From Candidatus Woesearchaeota archaeon (GTDB lineage: Archaea; Nanobdellota; Nanobdellia; Woesearchaeales; UBA583), in NCBI GenBank assembly GCA_965205335.1, contig OZ242164.1, positions 864,001 to 928,000 on the forward strand: DNA of 64,000 nucleotides, read 5' to 3'. The notes under the pieces are model-generated. The model searched no databases, had not been told where the DNA came from, and worked only from the letters and a program-made list of their open reading frames with translations. Within the stretch, counting starts at the first letter, position 1, and each line of letters begins with the position of its first letter. Positions 2-51,271 of the stretch are shown here, piece after piece. The position numbers were made by a program, and so were the translations under genes.

Positions 2-949
2 TCAAGCAGTCAAAGGACAACTACTTGATTTTTTAAATTGCTCCAAATTTCCCCAATTTTTCTTTTTATAATTCCATGTGGTAAATTTCAGCCGTATATC
101 AATGTGTATGAACTCGGCTTCCTTGTTCACTCCCATACCTTTAAAACCATATTTGCGAGCAGAACATATAAATGCTTTCATTTTTTCATAACTCCACCCC
201 CTGGTACTGATATCAACCGCTGTTCCTCTTAAATGTTCGGAATTCCTGGCATCCGACACATCATCGTTATGTTTGGGGGATCTATAGGCACTGTTGATGA
301 TAAGTGGTTTATTCAAACCAATGTCTTGGTGCACTGCTTTAAGTTTGGACCATACAATATCTCTGACTCCCTCATACCTCTTTCCGGGTCTTTCATCAGT
401 GTAACAACCTCTATTGCAGTTGCAACTCACCACACATTCGCTTAATTTTATCATGCCTCCTCTCTCTATCTCATCCTTTATTTTCTCTTTATTTGTATTC
501 GTCTTATCCTCATCCTTCCTATCCTCATCTGTCCTGTCCCCATCAGTCCTATCTTTATCCGCCCTATTCTCATTTAATAAATTCTTGAACTTCTCATGTA
601 ATTTACCACCGCAACCTAAATTTTCTTTCTTTTCATTATCTATATCAGAACTATCACATTGCTTAAAATACTTTTCCCACATTTCCCATCTCTTAAAATC
701 TTTCTCCTCACAACTCTTCTCTAAAAGCATATCCTTAGTACATCTTTCAATATTACACAACTTATCTGTTCTCTCGCACTTCTCAATTGCCAAAGCTTGG
801 GAAGGAGTTAAAATAACATTAGGAGAATCCTGAAAGAACTTACCAACAACTAAAATTATAACTAAAATAACCACTCCTATAATGATTAGTTCTATAACCT
901 TTTGAAGGGACAACTCAACAGCTTTTTTATTACCTATTGGGCTTCTCAT
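2..949 (-). CDS. Class III signal peptide (pilin-like) protein with C-terminal peptidase M15A (YcbK/D-Ala-D-Ala peptidase-like) domain
   Basis: N-term NKKA|VELSLQKVIELIIIGVVILVII; C-term SAYRSPKHN, SEHLRGTAVD and FIHID (H/D/H Zn ligands); Cys-rich and DxDRT low-complexity linker. Confidence 0.85.
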   Translation of the reverse strand: MRSPIGNKKAVELSLQKVIELIIIGVVILVIILVVGKFFQDSPNVILTPSQALAIEKCERTDKLCNIERCTKDMLLEKSCEEKDFKRWEMWEKYFKQCDSSDIDNEKKENLGCGGKLHEKFKNLLNENRADKDRTDGDRTDEDRKDEDKTNTNKEKIKDEIERGGMIKLSECVVSCNCNRGCYTDERPGKRYEGVRDIVWSKLKAVHQDIGLNKPLIINSAYRSPKHNDDVSDARNSEHLRGTAVDISTRGWSYEKMKAFICSARKYGFKGMGVNKEAEFIHIDIRLKFTTWNYKKKNWGNLEQFKKSSSCPLTA

Positions 950-957
950 CTTAAACT

Positions 958-2439
958 CTATCCCTTAATCACTTCAAAAGAATGGAAATATCTTCTAATC
1001 TTCCCGTGGATTTTAGCTTCAATTTCCAAATCAGGAATCTTAATATCTCCTAAAATACCTTTCTTATTCACAAGTGCAAACCCAATAATTCTTGAATCAT
1101 TCTTTTCAAACCTCTTAAAATTCCAGACTAATTTGAACTGATTTCTCCCCTTCATAACATGATTTGGTTCAGTTAATAAAAAAGAATTATCCCTAATCTG
1201 AAGATACCCAGGCATTCTAAAAATAATCTTCAACAAATCAATCTCGGATTCCTTTATATTTTCAAACCCAATTTTAACCTTCATACTTTTAACACCCTCA
1301 TGCTCAACTTTCTCAACTTCATAAATATCAGTTTCAACATCTAAAGGATTTGATGATTTTCTAATATACCAATAAGTTGCAACACATAAAACAATTAAAA
1401 CCAAAAGATAAAGTGTCAGATAATTAACTGAATAAGTTATAGATTTAGTCTCCCCTTTTTCCAGAGGAATGTTAAATTTTATTCCCTTGTCTGTTTTTTC
1501 ATAATTATCCGAACCTGATGATGAAAATAAGAATCTTTCAAAAAACCCAAGTTTTACATCCCTAACATAAGTATCAAAAACATTACCATTATTTGTTACA
1601 GTAATCATAACCTCATCTTCAAGAAAATTTGATTTAGGTTCAACAACTTCATTTATTTGCCTAATTTCTACAACATTTATTAAACTATTCGCAAACCATT
1701 CTTGAGCAGTGTTTGTATTATTCTCTGTGTGTCTAATAATAACTCTCGCCTCGTACTCCTTTGGATCAATCTTAGGAGATATTTCTGCCTGATAAACTTT
1801 ATAATTTAAAGATTTTGAAAAAGTATCATCAAAGTTCGCAATCTCATGTTCACCTAATTCTACTCTTACATTAACTGAAATTTCCTCTCCCATATTTTTT
1901 ACTTCAATAGTATAATCCAAAGGAGATGCAGGGGACACATCACTTACTGCAAATCTTGGATTAAAAATTATTGGAACAGAATTAGGTTTCTCGATTTTAA
2001 CACGGAACTTCACTAAAACTTCTTCATTTTTTCCTACTACCTTAATAGGAAGATCAAATTCCCCATTATACTCATTATCCTGAGAAATAATTATCTCCTC
2101 AGGGGAAATAACATCAGTACTGTAATCAAACTCTGAATTAGCACTATAACTAAAAGTAATCAGCTTTTTTTTGTTAATTCCTAAATTGAATGTTTTATAA
2201 TTTACTTCAGTATCCCATCCTTTCTGATCAAAAATTACAACTTCAAAGTTCTGAGAAGAATCCAAATTATTATTAACTTCAAGTGCGAATTCTCCATTAA
2301 TATCATCATTAAATACAATACTTTCCTGAGTTTCAATTACTACAGAAAAATCTCCATTTTCATTCAAAGTTATAGCAAAAGCACTACAAATGCCAAATAA
2401 AATCACAAAAAATGTAATAATAAAGGATTTAAAAATCAT
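958..2439 (-). CDS. Exported/membrane-anchored beta-rich protein (signal peptide, Ig-like repeats, one internal TM helix)
   Basis: Start moved to ATG 2439 (MIFKSF..SAFA), preceded by a GGGGAG SD inside the tfb 3' end; TM YLTLYLLVLIVLCVATYWY. Confidence 0.65.
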   Translation of the reverse strand: MIFKSFIITFFVILFGICSAFAITLNENGDFSVVIETQESIVFNDDINGEFALEVNNNLDSSQNFEVVIFDQKGWDTEVNYKTFNLGINKKKLITFSYSANSEFDYSTDVISPEEIIISQDNEYNGEFDLPIKVVGKNEEVLVKFRVKIEKPNSVPIIFNPRFAVSDVSPASPLDYTIEVKNMGEEISVNVRVELGEHEIANFDDTFSKSLNYKVYQAEISPKIDPKEYEARVIIRHTENNTNTAQEWFANSLINVVEIRQINEVVEPKSNFLEDEVMITVTNNGNVFDTYVRDVKLGFFERFLFSSSGSDNYEKTDKGIKFNIPLEKGETKSITYSVNYLTLYLLVLIVLCVATYWYIRKSSNPLDVETDIYEVEKVEHEGVKSMKVKIGFENIKESEIDLLKIIFRMPGYLQIRDNSFLLTEPNHVMKGRNQFKLVWNFKRFEKNDSRIIGFALVNKKGILGDIKIPDLEIEAKIHGKIRRYFHSFEVIKG

Positions 2440-3382
2440 TTTCTCCCCCTTCCTCTTCTTTTGATTTAGCTTTAATTTTTTTAATCTCATCTTCTAAATT
2501 TAATTTAGAAATTATTTCTTTATATCTGTTTCGTATAGTAACCTCCGTAACTCCTGAAACATCTGAAATATCTCTTTGGGTTTTCCTCTCTCCTTCAAGT
2601 AAGCCTGCGATGTATAAAGCCGCTGCTGCAATTCCTATAGGACCACGGCCAGAAGTTAATTCAAGAGATAAAGCCTTTGATAGAATCTCAACAGCTCTTG
2701 ACTGGGTTCCAGCCCCATAATTTAGAACAGATGCAAATCTTGATATGTAATCTACCGGATTTGAAGGCAAAATCTTAATTCTAAGTTCTCTTGTAATATA
2801 ACGATAAGACCTTCCGATTTCTTTTTTATCAATTCCGGATGCTTCCGCGATCTCATCTAATGTTCTGGGGATATTTTGTCTTCTGCATGCTGCATATACC
2901 ACACCTGCTACAACAGATTCAATACTTCTCCCCCTAACTAAGTTTTTCTGAACAGCTTCAGTATACACCTTTCCTGCTTCCTCTTCAATTGAGGATGGTA
3001 GATTCAGAAAAGATGATAACCTCCTAAGTTCTCCTAATGCAATTTTAAGATTCTTTTCCATAACTGTTGAAAGTCTCTTCTGCCACCTCTTTAATCTCTG
3101 AAGCTTATATCTTTGTTTCTTATCCAGAGAAAAAGCATCTGATTCAGAACCAATTGCAGTTCCCATACCCAAATCAAACTTAGTATATGATGTAGGTGCA
3201 CCAGACCTTCTCATCTCGGAATCATCACTTTCTTCAAAATCCCTCCATTCCTTTCCAAGCGAAATATTCTTTCCATCAATTAGAAGCCCACAACTTCTGC
3301 ATATTATTTCTCCCTTATCCTTGTTGTTGTAAAGATTAGAACTTGCACACTCAGGACATTTTTTAATATTATCTCCACTCAT
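2429..3382 (-). CDS. tfb: Transcription initiation factor IIB
   Basis: Zn ribbon CPECxS..GEIICRSCG, EWRDF B-reader, two cyclin repeats, GVTEVTIRNRYKE. Confidence 0.98.
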   Translation of the reverse strand: MSGDNIKKCPECASSNLYNNKDKGEIICRSCGLLIDGKNISLGKEWRDFEESDDSEMRRSGAPTSYTKFDLGMGTAIGSESDAFSLDKKQRYKLQRLKRWQKRLSTVMEKNLKIALGELRRLSSFLNLPSSIEEEAGKVYTEAVQKNLVRGRSIESVVAGVVYAACRRQNIPRTLDEIAEASGIDKKEIGRSYRYITRELRIKILPSNPVDYISRFASVLNYGAGTQSRAVEILSKALSLELTSGRGPIGIAAAALYIAGLLEGERKTQRDISDVSGVTEVTIRNRYKEIISKLNLEDEIKKIKAKSKEEEGGENDF

Positions 3383-24159: not shown

Positions 24160-26475
24160 TTGAAAGTGACAAATCAAGACAATTCTAGAGAAGAAGGACA
24201 AGAGAATTTAGAAGAGAAAATAGGGCTCTTTGGTAAATTCAGAGGACGAGGGAAGAAGAAAAAAGCAATAGTTGATGTGAGTTTTATGTCTTTACCAGGT
24301 CATAAAATTAATCTCAATGAAGGAGGAGGTGTTGATATTAATTCTGAAGAAGGTAAGGGTGTATCTTTGAAAATTCACAAAGAGAGGGGAAAGACTAGTA
24401 TTAATCCTACAGATGATCCGAACATTGCACATGTAAATTCTGATAGAGAGACTATTTTTGAGTCTTCTTTCCCTGGCATGGATGTTTTTGTTGGTAAAGG
24501 AGGGAATCGTTTTAAACCTATTGATGATAGAAATATTTCTTTTAACCTATTAGACAGGATGTTTTTGAATTTTGGTGGTAATATGAAAAATTATTTTCTT
24601 GCTAGACCTACATCCAGAAAAGGTATAAATTATATCATTAATGGTGTGATTGGGGTGGTTGAAGCTATCATTCCAAGAGGTGGAGGATTGCTTACTAAGT
24701 ATGGTGAGAAGGATACTAAATTAGTTCCTGTCTCCGAGTCAGGTACATCTGTTGAAGTAGGTAAGGAAGTTAAGGTGGTTGTTCCAAAAGATAGAGGATT
24801 GCTTACTAAGTATAGTGAGAAGGATACTAAATTAGTTCCTGTCTCCGAGCCAGGTACATCTGTTGAAGTAGGTAGGAAAGTTAAGGTGGTTACTCCAAAA
24901 AGAAAAAATTTATCTGCGAAATTTGGAGGAGATGGTACTGATACAATAAGTCCCACAGATAATTCTGTTCCAGTTGTTAATGCAGGTAGAGAATTTGAAG
25001 CTAGAACTTTAGAGGAGGAGATATTATCAGTGGAACTTGGCAGGAATTGGGCTATATTTAGACCTAAAGGCAAAGGGGATGATAACCCATCTGTAACTTT
25101 GCATGATAAGATAGAAGTTACGCCTCTGAAAAGTAGAGGTATAATTTGGAATGTGATAAAGAAAGGAAGATCAGCGGTGGTGACCGCTGAACCTATAAAA
25201 AAGGGAGGAAAATTTCTTAGAATGCCCAATGGAATACTTAATCTTAATAATTTTAAATATAAGTTGAGTGATGGGGGAATATTTGATTTTAATAAAGAAA
25301 AATGGAAGAAAAGATGGGTTAAAGGACTTTCTTTGATGGTATTAGGTAGCGCATTAGCAGGCGGAGTATTAAAATATCAATACCTAATGAATAATAATGA
25401 AGGGAGTTCTCCACAACAACCTCGTTCCAAGCGATTTGATAGTATACCAGAATTAGTAGAGGCAAATGGTATTTATATTTATCATAAGGGTGCTTTTGAT
25501 AGATGGACAGATGTCTGGTATGATATTAATACATCGCAAGGATTGTGTGAAAAAGATACTTATGTAACAGATAGAGTAAAAAGCAGACATCTTCTAGTAA
25601 GACTTGATGGGCGTGTCCCAAGGATTGTAAATACAAATGGGAACAATCAGAAAGAGAAAAAAAACCGAGGAAGAATGGTAGTTTCTCGTGAGATTCTAAT
25701 GAATTATGATTTGAGAATAGGTCATGGAGGAGATTTTGTTCTCCCTATAAGAAAAGGTGAACAAGGATATCCTTTTGCATTATATTGTAATGGAAGTAAA
25801 ATGGGAAAAGCAGTTGAGAGGTATCTTTCAGGAACGATACCACCTAATCAATGGTGGAAGGGGGCAGGATTGAAGAACAAGGAACTTAAATATGGTTCAG
25901 CATTTGAAGGAATTTTTAAAGATTTTAAAGATAATGAGGGAAATCCTACACTGCCCCAAGAACTTACACACTTACTTAAAGCACAAGCACTTGTTGAGAG
26001 TAGATTTATACCAGAGTCTATATCTCCTTCTGGTGCGAGGGGAATTCTGCAATTATTAAGAGGTACTCTTAGTCATTATGGTGTCAAGAGAGAGAATGAT
26101 TTTAAAATCCCTTATCAAATCAGATGTGCTTATGCACACTATGAAGATAAAATTAAGGAATTCAAACGATCATTGGGAGATATAAGAGCATCTGATGAAG
26201 ACAAAGCAAAACTTGCACTTTATTTAGCGATGCAGGCATATCATAGTGGGGAAGGTAATGTAAGTGGGATATTAAAAAAACCAGAATCAAAAGGAATCTT
26301 AGAAAAACTATTATCTGAAAACAGAAGTCCTCAAGAAGTAGTGCATGGATTGATAATATCAAATTATGGATTTGGAAAAATTTCTAATCGCAAAATAGGA
26401 GAAGAGTCCATAAATTACTTACCAAAGATCTTTGCCGCAGAAAGATTTCTATCAGAGAATGAATTGAGAAAGTAG
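24160..26475 (+). CDS. Membrane-anchored lytic transglycosylase (SLT family) with long N-terminal extension
   Basis: Catalytic ALVES, SGARGILQL, QAYHSGEGN, NYLPKI; TM GLSLMVLGSALAGGVL near aa 390. Confidence 0.85.
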   Translation: MKVTNQDNSREEGQENLEEKIGLFGKFRGRGKKKKAIVDVSFMSLPGHKINLNEGGGVDINSEEGKGVSLKIHKERGKTSINPTDDPNIAHVNSDRETIFESSFPGMDVFVGKGGNRFKPIDDRNISFNLLDRMFLNFGGNMKNYFLARPTSRKGINYIINGVIGVVEAIIPRGGGLLTKYGEKDTKLVPVSESGTSVEVGKEVKVVVPKDRGLLTKYSEKDTKLVPVSEPGTSVEVGRKVKVVTPKRKNLSAKFGGDGTDTISPTDNSVPVVNAGREFEARTLEEEILSVELGRNWAIFRPKGKGDDNPSVTLHDKIEVTPLKSRGIIWNVIKKGRSAVVTAEPIKKGGKFLRMPNGILNLNNFKYKLSDGGIFDFNKEKWKKRWVKGLSLMVLGSALAGGVLKYQYLMNNNEGSSPQQPRSKRFDSIPELVEANGIYIYHKGAFDRWTDVWYDINTSQGLCEKDTYVTDRVKSRHLLVRLDGRVPRIVNTNGNNQKEKKNRGRMVVSREILMNYDLRIGHGGDFVLPIRKGEQGYPFALYCNGSKMGKAVERYLSGTIPPNQWWKGAGLKNKELKYGSAFEGIFKDFKDNEGNPTLPQELTHLLKAQALVESRFIPESISPSGARGILQLLRGTLSHYGVKRENDFKIPYQIRCAYAHYEDKIKEFKRSLGDIRASDEDKAKLALYLAMQAYHSGEGNVSGILKKPESKGILEKLLSENRSPQEVVHGLIISNYGFGKISNRKIGEESINYLPKIFAAERFLSENELRK
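24671..24892 (+). repeat. 111-bp imperfect tandem duplication (37 aa) in the SLT N-terminal extension
   Basis: GLLTKY(G/S)EKDTKLVPVSE(S/P)GTSVEVG x2. Confidence 0.9.
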
Positions 26476-26484
26476 TTAATAAAA

Positions 26485-27747
26485 ATGGATAATAAAAACC
26501 TTTACAGTAAAATAAAAAAATATGGAGCTTCGGCAGGACTGCTGTTTGGGCTCTTTTTAGGAGGTTGTGATTACAATTTTCATGATAAAAATAACTCTTC
26601 AGATGCTCAAACTAATAAAGTTACAAAAACCCTTCCTTTAGAGTATTCCAAAAGACATCCATCAATACAAGCCTTAATTAAAGATAGAGGTGTTGAATAC
26701 TACCCTCCTAGTTCTTTTCAAACATGGACTCATTCATTAGTTGATATTTGTACAGGCACAGGTATTTGCTCAAAAGACGAATATAAGAGGCAAAGGTACA
26801 GACGAGTTTTTATAAGACTTGATGGAAAACTTGCAGGAACTGTAAATAGTAATACATTACCAGCAAGTATTAGAGGAGGTCAGCCCAGACGATTTAATGA
26901 AACAGAATGGAAACAAGTTGACGTGAGAATTAAAAGTGGACATGATTATGTTATTCCTTTTAATCAAGGTGATAAAGGATATCCATTTGGATTTAAATGT
27001 AATGGAAACATATTAAGAATCGGAATTGAGAGATACCTAAGGGGAGATATTAGAGGAGAGTATGGAGAATATGGGGAATATAATGTAGATTTTTACGAAG
27101 CATCATGGGGTGTTTATGTTGAAAATGGATTTCGGAAAAGAGGGATATTGCCAGAAGAGATATTTTATATAGTTAATGGTATGGCAAATGTTGAGAGTAA
27201 TTTCCTAAGAAGTGCAGAAAATAGTTCAACGGGTGCAAGGGGAATACTTCAACAGATGCCCAAAACTCTTCAAGATTGTGGAGTTCCTCAAAGTATGCAT
27301 AAAGATAGACTTGCTCAACTTGATTGTGCTTATAGATATTTTGAAGATAGATTTTCTCATTATGAACCACTAATAAATAATATAAAGATTAGTTCAGAAC
27401 AAAGAAATGAATTCTTGCTTTATCTGGCTGTTCAGGCTTATCATACAGGACAAGGTAATATAGAAAAAATATTAAAAGACCCAGAATCAATTAAAATTGC
27501 AAATAGATTTGTAGAAGAAGGAAGAGACCCTATTGAAATAGTACATGGGTTAACGATATTAAATTATGGACTTGGAAATAATGGGACTAAGGTAGGATTA
27601 GTATCTAGTTCTTATCTTCCCAAAGTAATAGCATCAGTTAGAATCTTAGAAGAAGTTAGACGAAAAAGAAGAAAAGAAGGGAATAGGATTAAAGGATATT
27701 CACTCCCTCCTCTACTCTTTCCTGAAGAAGAGGAAGGTAATAAATAA
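26485..27747 (+). CDS. Lipoprotein-like lytic transglycosylase (SLT family), paralog of the upstream gene
   Basis: Lipobox-like LFLGG|C; ANVES, TGARGILQQ, QAYHTGQGN, SYLPKV. Confidence 0.85.
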   Translation: MDNKNLYSKIKKYGASAGLLFGLFLGGCDYNFHDKNNSSDAQTNKVTKTLPLEYSKRHPSIQALIKDRGVEYYPPSSFQTWTHSLVDICTGTGICSKDEYKRQRYRRVFIRLDGKLAGTVNSNTLPASIRGGQPRRFNETEWKQVDVRIKSGHDYVIPFNQGDKGYPFGFKCNGNILRIGIERYLRGDIRGEYGEYGEYNVDFYEASWGVYVENGFRKRGILPEEIFYIVNGMANVESNFLRSAENSSTGARGILQQMPKTLQDCGVPQSMHKDRLAQLDCAYRYFEDRFSHYEPLINNIKISSEQRNEFLLYLAVQAYHTGQGNIEKILKDPESIKIANRFVEEGRDPIEIVHGLTILNYGLGNNGTKVGLVSSSYLPKVIASVRILEEVRRKRRKEGNRIKGYSLPPLLFPEEEEGNK

Positions 27748-48997: not shown

Positions 48998-51271
48998 CTA
49001 TCTACTCCAAGTAATAAAAGAACTTAAATCAGGGGCACTATTAATATTAAATCTATCATACTCTGAATTTCCACTTGAATCAACAGGAGATACCTTTCTA
49101 ACCTCAATTGAAGTAATATCAGAAGAATATTGCAGATTTTCAATCTTTCCATTGTCATCGACTTCTGAAGTTATTACATTTGGTGAATCTAATTCACTTC
49201 TGTACACTAAAGTTTGAGTATATAAAGATTTAACGTCTTCCGATTCCTTAGGCCTCCACTGGATGAAAAAATCATTTCCTACTCTATTTAAACTATAAGA
49301 CACAAAAACCACAGAACTAATATCGGGTGGTTTATTATCTATTATCTCTACAACATTCTTATATGGCCTAATTAAAATTCCATCTTCCTTATTTAGAACA
49401 TAATAATTAGTATCACTTGTGGAACTCTGTGAAATATCATACTCCTTAAAAATCTCTCTGAGAGTTCCACGTCCCTGCTCATCCTCTGTAACCAAAACAA
49501 CATTATAATTCTTTGAATTCTCTAAACTAAACTCAGGTCCAACAAAAACAACTTTTTCGTAATTTGGATTATTCACATTAGAAATATCAGAAGTAACCAA
49601 AACATTAGTATCTATTTTTGACAAACTCTTATAACAAAAATTTGTATTGCAAACACCTTTTTCAAGTTCCACATCATCATCACCCACTTTATAAACATAC
49701 AAACCGTATGAATAAATCTCATCATCAGAATTATCGTCAACATTAATATTAATAGCAAATGAATTCTCCATATCTGGCAAATTATTAATTATAGAGACTT
49801 CATCCGTTCTCAAAGATCTTGGCCCAAAAACCTTTTGGGGGATTTTTGAATTATATGAAAGTTTAAGCAGATTCTCATCTGTAAAATAATTATAATTCGG
49901 GTGATCTACTGCAAAAACAGCAAAATAAACCTTTCTCCCTTCCTCAAGCAGAACATAATCCTCAGAATCAAAATCATATATCTGATAAACTATTTTACTC
50001 TTAATACTATTTGGTCCAAAACCACCTTCACCATCAACTAATAAAAGATTCAAATTCAAATTGCTATCCTCATTAGAATGATAATACTTAACTCCATCAA
50101 CTGAAATAGAAGTATCATGCAAAGTACTTGGAATCTCGCTATTAACAAGCAAATCCTTCAACTTATTATATTTCTCAGAACCATAAACTTCAGGATCAAA
50201 AAAATCCTCATATGAATATAGCACAATAAACCTATTAGAAACTTCCTTTGTTGCAAACTTTGAAATTCTTATCTTTATTGCATTATCTAAAACCTCAAAA
50301 TTACTAAGAGAATATTCAACCACATCATAAGGAGCCTCATCTAAAACAATCATAAACTCCAAATCCAAATTACCTTCCTTAGAATCAAAATTAACCATGA
50401 AAATATCATAACCTTCAAGAGGAATTTCAGAAAGTTCTTTTACAGAAACATCAAACTCACTTAAAATTTTAGAATTCTTCTTACGAATCAATTCCTTAAA
50501 AATCAAATTAATACAATACTCTACTTTATTTATTACATTATCTGGAATATCCTCACGCCTTCTGCAAACAGGAATTTCACTTTTCACAGAATCAGATAAC
50601 TCAGGCAGAACATGATTTATCACATTAAAAAGTTCAGAATAAGAACCTAATACAAAATCAAACTCATATACATTATCTCTTGAAACAGAACCCACATCAG
50701 AAGAATACAACTGATTAGATGAAATACTTATCAAAAACTCAGAATGAGAAGCAGAACTAACATCTATGGACTTAAGATCTAAATCATTACTTTTACTAAA
50801 AAACCCCCCTATTTCTTTTTTCAATTCTTTTTCTAAATAAATTGCAAAAGCATTATTAAACTCCTCCACATCACTAATACAAGAAACACCATCACTATCA
50901 TCTGTCTTTGTTTCATCAATTAACTTCTGATTATAAAAAATAGGTGTTTTTGTCTCGTCATAAAGACATCCAACAAAATTCTCTCTATCAAGATCATCTA
51001 AATTCCTTTCAATACCATATAACTGGTTATCTATGAAATCATCAATTGACTTTGAAGCATAATTCAAAACAAACGAATTCAAAAAAATCTCTTCATAAAA
51101 AGATATTGAATTAGACTTATCAACAGATTTCAAAATAAAAAACTCTTTATCAAAATATGAATCCTTATGACTTGACAAAACAAAAATAAAAAAAGCTAGA
51201 ACTAAAATAATCATTGCGACAGACATAATATATGGGAAAATTGTACTTGCTTTTTTATTAAACATAATCAT
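48998..51271 (-). CDS. Large acidic surface protein with class III-like signal peptide
   Basis: NKKA|STIFPYIMSVAMIILVLAFFIFV; beta-rich C-terminal half. Confidence 0.6.
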   Translation of the reverse strand: MIMFNKKASTIFPYIMSVAMIILVLAFFIFVLSSHKDSYFDKEFFILKSVDKSNSISFYEEIFLNSFVLNYASKSIDDFIDNQLYGIERNLDDLDRENFVGCLYDETKTPIFYNQKLIDETKTDDSDGVSCISDVEEFNNAFAIYLEKELKKEIGGFFSKSNDLDLKSIDVSSASHSEFLISISSNQLYSSDVGSVSRDNVYEFDFVLGSYSELFNVINHVLPELSDSVKSEIPVCRRREDIPDNVINKVEYCINLIFKELIRKKNSKILSEFDVSVKELSEIPLEGYDIFMVNFDSKEGNLDLEFMIVLDEAPYDVVEYSLSNFEVLDNAIKIRISKFATKEVSNRFIVLYSYEDFFDPEVYGSEKYNKLKDLLVNSEIPSTLHDTSISVDGVKYYHSNEDSNLNLNLLLVDGEGGFGPNSIKSKIVYQIYDFDSEDYVLLEEGRKVYFAVFAVDHPNYNYFTDENLLKLSYNSKIPQKVFGPRSLRTDEVSIINNLPDMENSFAININVDDNSDDEIYSYGLYVYKVGDDDVELEKGVCNTNFCYKSLSKIDTNVLVTSDISNVNNPNYEKVVFVGPEFSLENSKNYNVVLVTEDEQGRGTLREIFKEYDISQSSTSDTNYYVLNKEDGILIRPYKNVVEIIDNKPPDISSVVFVSYSLNRVGNDFFIQWRPKESEDVKSLYTQTLVYRSELDSPNVITSEVDDNGKIENLQYSSDITSIEVRKVSPVDSSGNSEYDRFNINSAPDLSSFITWSR

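Follow-up and report, generated by a model that had tools for sequence, protein, structure and literature searches.

The gene analysed here, P0001, lies at positions 2 to 949 on the minus strand of a 64,000-nucleotide stretch of DNA (the window, G000:C1:864001-928000) from the genome of a Candidatus Woesearchaeota archaeon. This genome (G000) is a single contig of 1.2 Mb with a GC (guanine plus cytosine) content of 31%, rated 95% complete, and its archaeal markers include TFB, archaellin, and an aIF2-gamma-like open reading frame (ORF). These markers, along with protein-atlas neighbours labelled Nanobdellota and Woesearchaeota, are consistent with a DPANN archaeon. The product of P0001 is probably a surface-tethered, cassette-switching enzyme directed against murein and mounted on a prepilin-like carrier, as judged from sequence comparison and structure prediction. 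Direct support exists for the architecture of the protein, its intact catalytic site and its fold, for the swapping of its catalytic domain among relatives and the conservation of the genomic slot that it occupies, as well as for the lack of genes that would build a wall of the archaeon's own and the presence of genes for prepilin processing and pilus assembly.

In the mechanism that we propose, the locus is polymorphic across the genus, and P0001 would be one of its alleles. The carrier, comprising a short leader ending in K-K-[G/A], a hydrophobic helix, and a six-Cys helical ectodomain, would set the protein in the membrane with its N terminus inside and its C terminus outside, and a flexible charged tether would hold an interchangeable murein-hydrolase domain outside the cell. 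The substrate would be the wall of a bacterium touched as host or prey, presumably attacked on contact, and switching of the cassette would alter which bond is cut. After leader cleavage, we would expect the N-terminal helix to keep the enzyme anchored, either in the membrane or within an assembly of the bindosome kind, and would not expect the protein to work as a regular pilus subunit.

The elements of the gene are as follows, with confidence values (pLDDT, predicted local distance difference test) taken from an AlphaFold2 model that was based on a shallow alignment of 19 rows and has a mean pLDDT of 78.7.

2..949, minus strand: complete gene P0001, 315 residues, with the stop codon at 2-4 (ORF translation)
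920..949, minus strand: putative class III (prepilin-type) leader MRSPIGNKKA, residues 1-10, ending in K-K-A (sequence; agrees with the FlaFind core motif at -2, -1, and +1 and departs from it at +2)
899..919, minus strand: conserved block VELSLQK, residues 11-17, beginning at the putative +1 (alignment A1)
830..907, minus strand: single hydrophobic helix, residues 15-40, either a membrane anchor or α1N of a pilin-type subunit (pLDDT 85-96; hydropathy scan)
548..805, minus strand: six-Cys helical module, residues 49-134 (pLDDT 85-91)
455..547, minus strand: charged low-complexity tether, residues 135-165, with pentapeptide repeats DKDRT/DGDRT (tandem repeat; pLDDT <50 at residues 137-150)
65..454, minus strand: LAS-fold zinc peptidase domain, residues ~166-295 (Pfam Peptidase_M15_3 spans nucleotides 98-355; pLDDT 84-94)
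233..235, 212..214, and 104..106, minus strand: zinc ligands H239, D246, and H282; also D284 (98..100) and R223 (motif; H239 and D246 also by alignment to 1lbu)

The C-terminal domain scores 60.7 bits against Pfam Peptidase_M15_3 (cut-off 23.2, E 1.7e-16, residues 199-284; 63.3 bits in the genome scan) and 31.8 bits against Peptidase_M15_2 (cut-off 27). The zinc motif is exact, with S237-x-H239-x-x-G242-x-A244-x-D246 followed by H282-x-D284, and both H239 and D246 are conserved in seven aligned M15 sequences. A sequence match in the PDB to the DD-peptidase of Streptomyces albus (1lbu) aligns NSEHLRGTAVD with NSRHMYGHAAD, and the same structure is found by Foldseek (E 9.7e-5, along with ChiX, Ply500, LysECD7, and LysB4) and aligned by VIA-align with Z of 10.2 and a root-mean-square deviation of 3.3 over 122 residues; after 1lbu, the fold searches lead to ChiX, Ply500, LysB4, VanX, and the hedgehog N-domains. 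Thus the complete M15A zinc site that the first-pass annotation of this DNA had described is borne out by a profile match above the cut-off, three intact ligands, and the LAS fold. A tblastn search with the domain retrieved 295 phage records at 33-39% identity, mostly annotated as endolysin or 'peptidase M15' and belonging to phages of proteobacteria. In our reading, P0001 is a zinc peptidase of the LAS/M15 type that would sit at the cell surface and cut the peptide part of bacterial peptidoglycan. It shares the fold, the H-x6-D...H zinc site, and the SAYR motif with 1lbu and the M15 endolysins of proteobacterial phages. These relatives are soluble, secreted or phage-released and carry a peptidoglycan-binding domain or none; in P0001, the domain is instead joined to an archaeal anchor of prepilin-like character and to a module rich in Cys, and the organism has no wall.

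The remaining parts of the chain agree with the KKA motif, hydrophobic helix, and Cys-rich charged spacer noted in the same annotation. Residues M1-A10 (MRSPIGNKKA) are followed by VELSLQK, whose K17 is invariant in the seven-row alignment A1, and by the hydrophobic stretch. A coil at residues 41-48 separates the helix 15-40 from the module containing six cysteines (58, 65, 70, 80, 98, and 113), of which C70, C80, and C98 are invariant in alignment A1, as is W88. Together with the N terminus, this module makes up a conserved carrier of ~125 residues. Its six cysteines fit an extracellular location. Comparison with solved structures gave weak matches only (best Z 3.4-3.7), which is not proof of a new fold. 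The charged linker, residues 135-165, follows; a 15-nucleotide tandem repeat at window positions 500-573 (4.9 copies, 72% matches) encodes its DKDRT-like repeats, and the number of these could vary the length of the tether between strains. Four further cysteines are found at residues 172-182.

P0001 is not a chance ORF, since it has two full-length homologues, P0002 and P0005, at 51-53% identity. The breadth of the family became visible only with an exhaustive profile search: a word-indexed homologue search returned four proteins for P0001, one for the M15 domain alone, and seven by profile, whereas the carrier profile (residues 1-125, alignment A1, run with HMMER over 1.84 billion representative proteins at E<=1e-3) returned 46 cluster representatives, with the module always at the very N terminus. 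One member bears the NCBI label 'Nanoarchaeales archaeon'. A Pfam scan of 45 of the representatives at E<=1e-3 found a family match in 31 and none in 14. The C-terminal domains are distributed as follows, the last of them scoring below the Pfam cut-off.

Muramidase (PF11860): 16 of 45
SLT: 6 of 45, one of them also with M23
Amidase_2: 3 of 45
M23: 2 of 45
Glucosaminidase: 2 of 45
M15_3: 1 of 45
DUF2272: 1 of 45
VgrG3-like C-terminal domain: 1 of 45, below the cut-off

Of the 14 proteins that matched no family, four measure just 62-127 residues (fragments or small proteins), and the other ten contain SLT-like 'GLIQF' or VgrG3-like 'YGNFGLN' or 'FGLFQFN' motifs, recognized by eye and with simple patterns rather than by profiles. 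Pairs of close relatives show the exchange. P0001 and P0003 are 82% identical over the N-module (~120 residues) and 25% identical in the C terminus by global alignment, the latter being a hedgehog-like LAS domain in P0003; BLASTP missed the N-terminal similarity that the global alignment showed. P0009 and P0010 likewise have nearly the same carrier (84% identity) and different enzymes (21%). On a tree of the N-module, built from 45 rows of at least 200 residues with short rows and P0004 left out, five sister pairs with values of at least 96 in the Shimodaira-Hasegawa-like approximate likelihood ratio test (SH-aLRT) carry different domains. This tree requires no fewer than 23 changes of catalytic class, a rough count since it is poorly resolved; shuffling of the labels gave a mean of 25.7, with 20 of 300 shuffles at or below 23. 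The C terminus of the carrier is thus swapped among murein hydrolases of the M15, hedgehog-like LAS, muramidase, amidase, SLT, M23, and glucosaminidase types.

This arrangement has a counterpart in bacterial polymorphic toxin and effector systems (Tae, Tge, and VgrG3 of type VI secretion systems, T6SS, or contact-dependent inhibition, CDI), in which a conserved N-terminal trafficking part is joined to rapidly exchanged C-terminal toxic domains. The P0001 family is alike in its conserved N-terminal part and in the exchange of C-terminal domains among close relatives, and some of its alleles resemble the C-terminal domain of VgrG3 (19-23 bits, below the cut-off). Unlike those systems, it has no injection machine, and every cassette targets murein. 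No cognate immunity gene was found beside P0001, where the neighbour is a convergent gene for a Trm5-like methyltransferase; such a gene would not be needed, because the producer has no wall.

The surroundings of P0001 define a genomic slot for these cassettes. Two genes precede it on the same strand.

2429..3382, minus strand: tfb (transcription factor B), head of the packed run (TFIIB 147 bits)
958..2490, minus strand: upstream gene, tightly coupled, for a surface protein of 493-510 residues (ORF; likely true start 2439)

The surface-protein gene overlaps the end of tfb, and P0001 starts 8 nucleotides past the stop of the surface-protein gene, in keeping with the packed run behind tfb that had been described before. 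Beyond P0001 in G000 comes the convergent Trm5-like gene. The surface protein has a Sec-type signal, three beta-sandwich ectodomains, a transmembrane helix, and a conserved cytoplasmic domain of ~130 residues, rich in beta structure, which is its most conserved part; its structure matches were generic tandem beta-sandwich arrays only. Across the order, its gene is a near-universal, single-copy member of the core, with matches at E<=1e-10 in 116 of 151 genomes.

Of the 20 genomes of the genus, 15 (among them G000) have a gene with the carrier module immediately after the one for the surface protein. This gene faces the convergent Trm5-like gene wherever the locus extends that far (G000 and at least nine loci of the genus). 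In the other five genomes (82-92% complete), the carrier profile detected no module-bearing gene, and among 28 loci from other genera no module-bearing gene stands downstream of the surface-protein gene (0/28). The slot is therefore both conserved in this genus and new in it. The 116/151 tally and the 0/28 count each take in the unpublished genome G150, and a tally of 93/301 takes in the unpublished G223, G130, and G261; no specific claim rests on unpublished genomes alone. The contents of the slot in the 15 genomes are listed below.

M15_3: G000
Muramidase: G017, G012, G003, and G009
Amidase_2: G002
SLT with M23: G001
M23: G007
SLT, above the cut-off: G016
SLT, below the cut-off: G011, G006, and G010
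VgrG3-like, below the cut-off: G004 and G013
no cassette, a gene of 173 residues: G015

The claim of the first-pass annotation that P0001 is a resident gene rather than recent cargo has to be divided accordingly. Residence applies to the slot, which is kept in 15 of 20 genomes; what can be exchanged, as cargo, is the catalytic domain, as indicated both by its GC content (38.4%, within a range of 38-41% for the catalytic half, compared to 31.7% in the carrier and 29.3% in the upstream gene) and by the 82% identity of the P0003 N-module next to an unrelated C terminus. The composition of the catalytic half, richer in GC at 38-41% against 31%, together with phage endolysins as its nearest named relatives, could suggest instead that the gene codes for a phage endolysin alien to the archaeon, present as foreign or viral cargo or through an artefact of binning. 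A stand-alone gene for a Peptidase_M15_3 protein of 134 residues in G016 (L011:1495-1896, minus strand; 77 bits, 38% identical to the P0001 domain) points the same way, since it adjoins genes for small membrane proteins and a nuclease-like ORF, an arrangement that resembles the lysis cassette of a phage, on a contig assigned by binning; it is a possible source type for the cassette. P0001 itself is placed inside a single archaeal contig of 1.2 Mb, between tfb and the Trm5-like gene, and is fused in frame to an archaeal module specific to the genus, in a slot kept in most of its genomes. Synteny contradicts a foreign origin of the whole gene, which we regard as extremely improbable.

If the enzyme cuts murein, the murein must come from elsewhere. 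No match was found in the 95%-complete G000 for Mur_ligase_M (a family used also for pseudomurein), for the transpeptidase domain of penicillin-binding proteins (PBP), or for FTSW_RODA_SPOVE (SEDS), while control searches with these families matched in bacteria. The statement that archaea of the DPANN group lack peptidoglycan thus holds for this genome as well, and with genes for neither murein nor pseudomurein synthesis in the genome, the target would be foreign murein, in the wall of the bacterium that is touched. Two other targets were considered and rejected: an autolysin acting on the organism's own wall is ruled out by the missing Mur_ligase_M, PBP transpeptidase, and FtsW/RodA matches, and pseudomurein is ruled out by inference, because the sister cassettes (muramidase, N-acetylmuramic acid (MurNAc)-L-Ala amidase, and SLT) need bonds that pseudomurein lacks. 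Pseudomurein does not contain the MurNAc-dependent bonds cut by muramidases, MurNAc-L-Ala amidases, and SLT enzymes, so the carrier family as a whole would be aimed at bacterial walls.

G000 encodes further proteins of the SLT family. Two of them are tandem paralogues within the window, between HisRS-like and aIF2-gamma-like genes.

24160..26475, plus strand: SLT protein, 771 residues (SLT 39.9 bits)
26485..27747, plus strand: SLT protein, 420 residues, with a lipobox-like 'LFLGGC' N terminus (SLT 33.6 bits)

The third SLT ORF lies outside the window (G000:C1:959317-959589, 58.4 bits); with P0001, the genome has at least four murein hydrolases. This number, taken together with the metabolic poverty of DPANN genomes, would suit scavenging, in which the enzymes digest environmental wall debris as food with neither attack on a living bacterium nor attachment to it. 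Genes for AnmK and for NagB-type enzymes (Glucosamine_iso) were not found in G000, which argues weakly against simple feeding on wall sugars; moreover, enzymes of the P0001 kind are tethered rather than released, and the rapid switching of cassettes would be more typical of conflict systems. We therefore find scavenging improbable as the explanation of the system.

Murein hydrolases in archaea that lack murein have been described before. In Strock et al. 2025 (PMC12352652), archaeal murein hydrolases that kill bacteria carry Sec or Tat signals and peptidoglycan-binding domains, and passages from Castelle et al. 2021 (PMC8204110) and Vigneron et al. 2022 (PMC9723730) interpret the GH23 genes of Woesearchaeota, and giant SLT proteins in both Woese- and Pacearchaeota, as a sign of bacterial hosts or prey. 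In these passages, as in G000, archaea without murein encode murein hydrolases, which are read as tools against bacteria or for attachment to a host. The published enzymes combine a catalytic domain and a peptidoglycan-binding domain with a Sec or Tat signal, or are giant GH23 proteins, and the passages name neither a prepilin-type leader nor a shared carrier nor a locus that switches cassettes; in PMC12352652, 'class III' and 'pilin' each occur 0 times. The modular hydrolases defined in that text have a catalytic and a peptidoglycan-binding domain, and P0001, in which no binding domain is recognized, falls outside that definition. In the literature that could be searched, no report came up of archaea in which murein-hydrolase cassettes alternate on one shared carrier of the prepilin-like type.

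Several observations weigh against a tethered enzyme of this kind acting on bacterial walls or against parts of that proposal. No peptidoglycan-binding domain was detected with Pfam or NCBIfam at E<=0.1 or E<=0.01, and the MepK equivalog model (NCBIfam NF053624, a murein L,D-endopeptidase) scores 41 bits, below its cut-off of 185, so that the bond cut is not named by it. In diderm bacteria, a tethered enzyme could not reach the wall without a breach of the outer membrane, and the nearest phage relatives of the domain come from proteobacterial phages. The M15 allele is rare, being confined to P0001, P0002, and P0005, and 24 of 42 inner branches of the N-module tree are open. Additionally, the leader is absent from 21 of the 46 carrier representatives and from 5 of the 15 slot genes of the genus, so processing is not essential to the family. 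Finally, when P0001 is compared with the core motif of FlaFind 1.2, [KRDE][GA][ALIFQMVED][ILMVTAS] as quoted in a passage of PMC4307647, K9, A10, and V11 fit, and E12, at position +2, lies outside [ILMVTAS].

The last two points bear on the assignment of a class III signal peptide in the first-pass annotation, which is therefore upheld in part. On the one hand, the short charged leader of ten residues followed by a hydrophobic helix has the layout of such signals, and KKA|VELSLQ is close to the N terminus of tiny pilin-like proteins of the same genus; on the other hand, position +2 departs from the motif and nearly half of the relatives have no leader. The archaellin of G000 confirmed by Pfam, with 'NKKG|AQGIGTL', also fails at +2, so the FlaFind motif may be too narrow for this lineage. 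Many leaderless relatives begin with 'ME[LIF]xxxK' at about the predicted +1, which marks a real boundary there, yet one at which processing is dispensable. The machinery is in place: instead of the lack of prepilin peptidase and pilus ATPase that would have spoken against the annotation, G000 has two Peptidase_A24 ORFs (40.7 and 32 bits, cut-off 26.5) and a pilus operon with a T2SSE ATPase (134.2 bits), two T2SSF (TadC-like) genes (44 and 43.1 bits), and canonical pilins starting with 'NRKG|QVAVEF' and 'LA|QSSFEYL'. The two A24 ORFs are located at C1:623657-625051 and C1:1021636-1022490. On balance, cleavage of the leader of this allele by a prepilin peptidase seems slightly favoured.

A substantial minority possibility is that P0001 is a plain ectoenzyme with an uncleaved type II membrane anchor, in which K-K-[G/A] is nothing but the positive-inside flank. 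Nearly half of the carrier family works without a leader, the invariant K17 just before the hydrophobic core and K37 after it are placed as in an ordinary single-span helix, and the +2 position of FlaFind is not satisfied. An ordinary flank does not explain why all 25 of the leader-bearing representatives end in [KR][GA], nearly all of them in K-K-[G/A], when G and A account for only 9.4% of residues and are strongly enriched at this point, nor why the same motif recurs in the archaellin and pilin-like proteins of G000. The enrichment extends to the genome: a crude set of 1181 ORFs contains 61 proteins in which [KR]K-x lies at most eight residues ahead of a hydrophobic segment near the N terminus, and x is G or A in 22 of them (36%), compared to a background of 9.6% (binomial p 2e-8); the set includes the archaellin confirmed by Pfam.

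The opposite extreme is a modular minor pilin, with the leader cut by a PibD/FlaK-type peptidase and the helix built into a type IV filament, probably at its tip and probably together with a tiny pilin-like protein of 58-67 residues, so that the hydrolase is carried to the bacterium. ORFs for such tiny proteins are present in 11 genomes of the genus and consist of NKK[GA]|[VIM]EL[TS][LF]Q, one hydrophobic helix, and a tail of ~20 residues. The one in G000 lies 2 kb before the start of the window, with counterparts at L071-L083 in relatives.

G000:C1:861912-862097, plus strand: tiny pilin-like ORF of G000

This ORF matches the carrier profile with E of 4.1e-6, and its motif almost equals the NKKA|VELSLQK of P0001. 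Pfam recognizes no pilin family either in the tiny ORFs or in the N terminus of P0001; the tiny ORFs are candidates for a very short major pilin. The likeness of the leader and of the first mature residues, the peptidases, ATPase, platform genes, and canonical pilins of G000, and the starts of leaderless relatives near +1 all favour incorporation into a filament, as does a bacterial precedent for grafted modules: Raynaud et al. 2021 (PMC8179133) present type IV pilins with grafted functional modules as established in bacteria (PilB of S. sanguinis). Like P0001, those proteins use a short N terminus of the class III type as carrier and graft onto it, via a linker, one of many alternative functional modules. 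They differ in having a canonical pilin fold and demonstrated incorporation, whereas the P0001 family has no predicted pilin head, an optional leader, and wall hydrolases as its only modules; their survey concerns bacterial IPR012902 proteins, with 0 occurrences of 'archaea' in the text. In the AlphaFold2 model, a prediction from a shallow alignment of 19 rows, the 26-residue helix 15-40 leads through the coil 41-48 directly to the helical Cys module, with no beta-sheet head, which would speak against a pilin fold. Furthermore, K17 and E20 would fall inside the core helix, position +2 is Glu, the 21 leaderless representatives cannot be peptidase substrates, the pilus operon is unlinked, ~217 kb from P0001, and in eight genomes of the genus the tiny pilin-like gene is on another contig. 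The minor pilin carrying a muralytic domain that the first-pass annotation proposed thus keeps its M15 domain, its pilin-like leader, and the pilus genes, and lacks a head in the model, a leader common to the family, and a conforming +2 residue; taken as a whole, we hold it to be rather unlikely.

The surface-tethered enzyme that we prefer has a parallel outside pili. A passage of PMC3387779 reports class III signals on proteins that are not pilins, those of the Sulfolobus bindosome. As proposed for P0001, these are functional proteins with a prepilin-type leader that is cut by PibD, held at the cell surface. The cargo described in that passage consists of solute-binding proteins and has a dedicated assembly system, Bas, of which no counterpart is shown for P0001, where no search aimed at one was made.

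Other genes of G000 have similar N termini. Two adjacent ones in the window start with 'NKKA|' and 'SKKA|', respectively, followed by hydrophobic helices, have no Pfam match, and may encode further prepilin-type surface proteins.

48998..51271, minus strand: protein of 757 residues
51278..51850, minus strand: protein of 190 residues

Outside the window, three consecutive genes at G000:C1:947844-951145 have N termini of the KKA| type. One of them matches DUF7287 weakly (26 bits, cut-off 27), and another, of 794 residues, has two lectin-like Laminin_G_3 domains (130.9 bits), an architecture that looks like that of a modular pilin with a lectin module.

It is an open question whether some DPANN archaea live on bacteria instead of other archaea, and the evidence to date comes mostly from scattered genes for lytic transglycosylases. 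For organisms without a wall, a genus-wide slot in which a single carrier is combined in turn with at least seven types of murein hydrolase makes little sense unless they deal regularly with bacterial walls, and wall-cutting enzymes swapped on the same anchor at the same spot of the genome point to bacteria as the hosts or prey of this genus. The finding also offers experimental handles, namely the carrier module as a target for antibodies, a predicted cleavage site, and a panel of natural enzymes from whose preferred bonds the wall chemotype of the partner may be deduced. For enzymology, it supplies a collection of compact wall hydrolases that nature has already shuffled. It widens the ideas of the modular pilin and of the polymorphic effector to archaea. 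A bolder version, in which type IV filaments serve as a contact weapon or a tool for host entry, with a carrier derived from the tiny major pilin presenting interchangeable murein hydrolases at the filament, appears unlikely to us at present; if true, it would provide the first modular pilins of archaea to have enzymes as cargo, together with an immunity-free, cassette-switching effector system that one domain of life directs at another, the bacteria.

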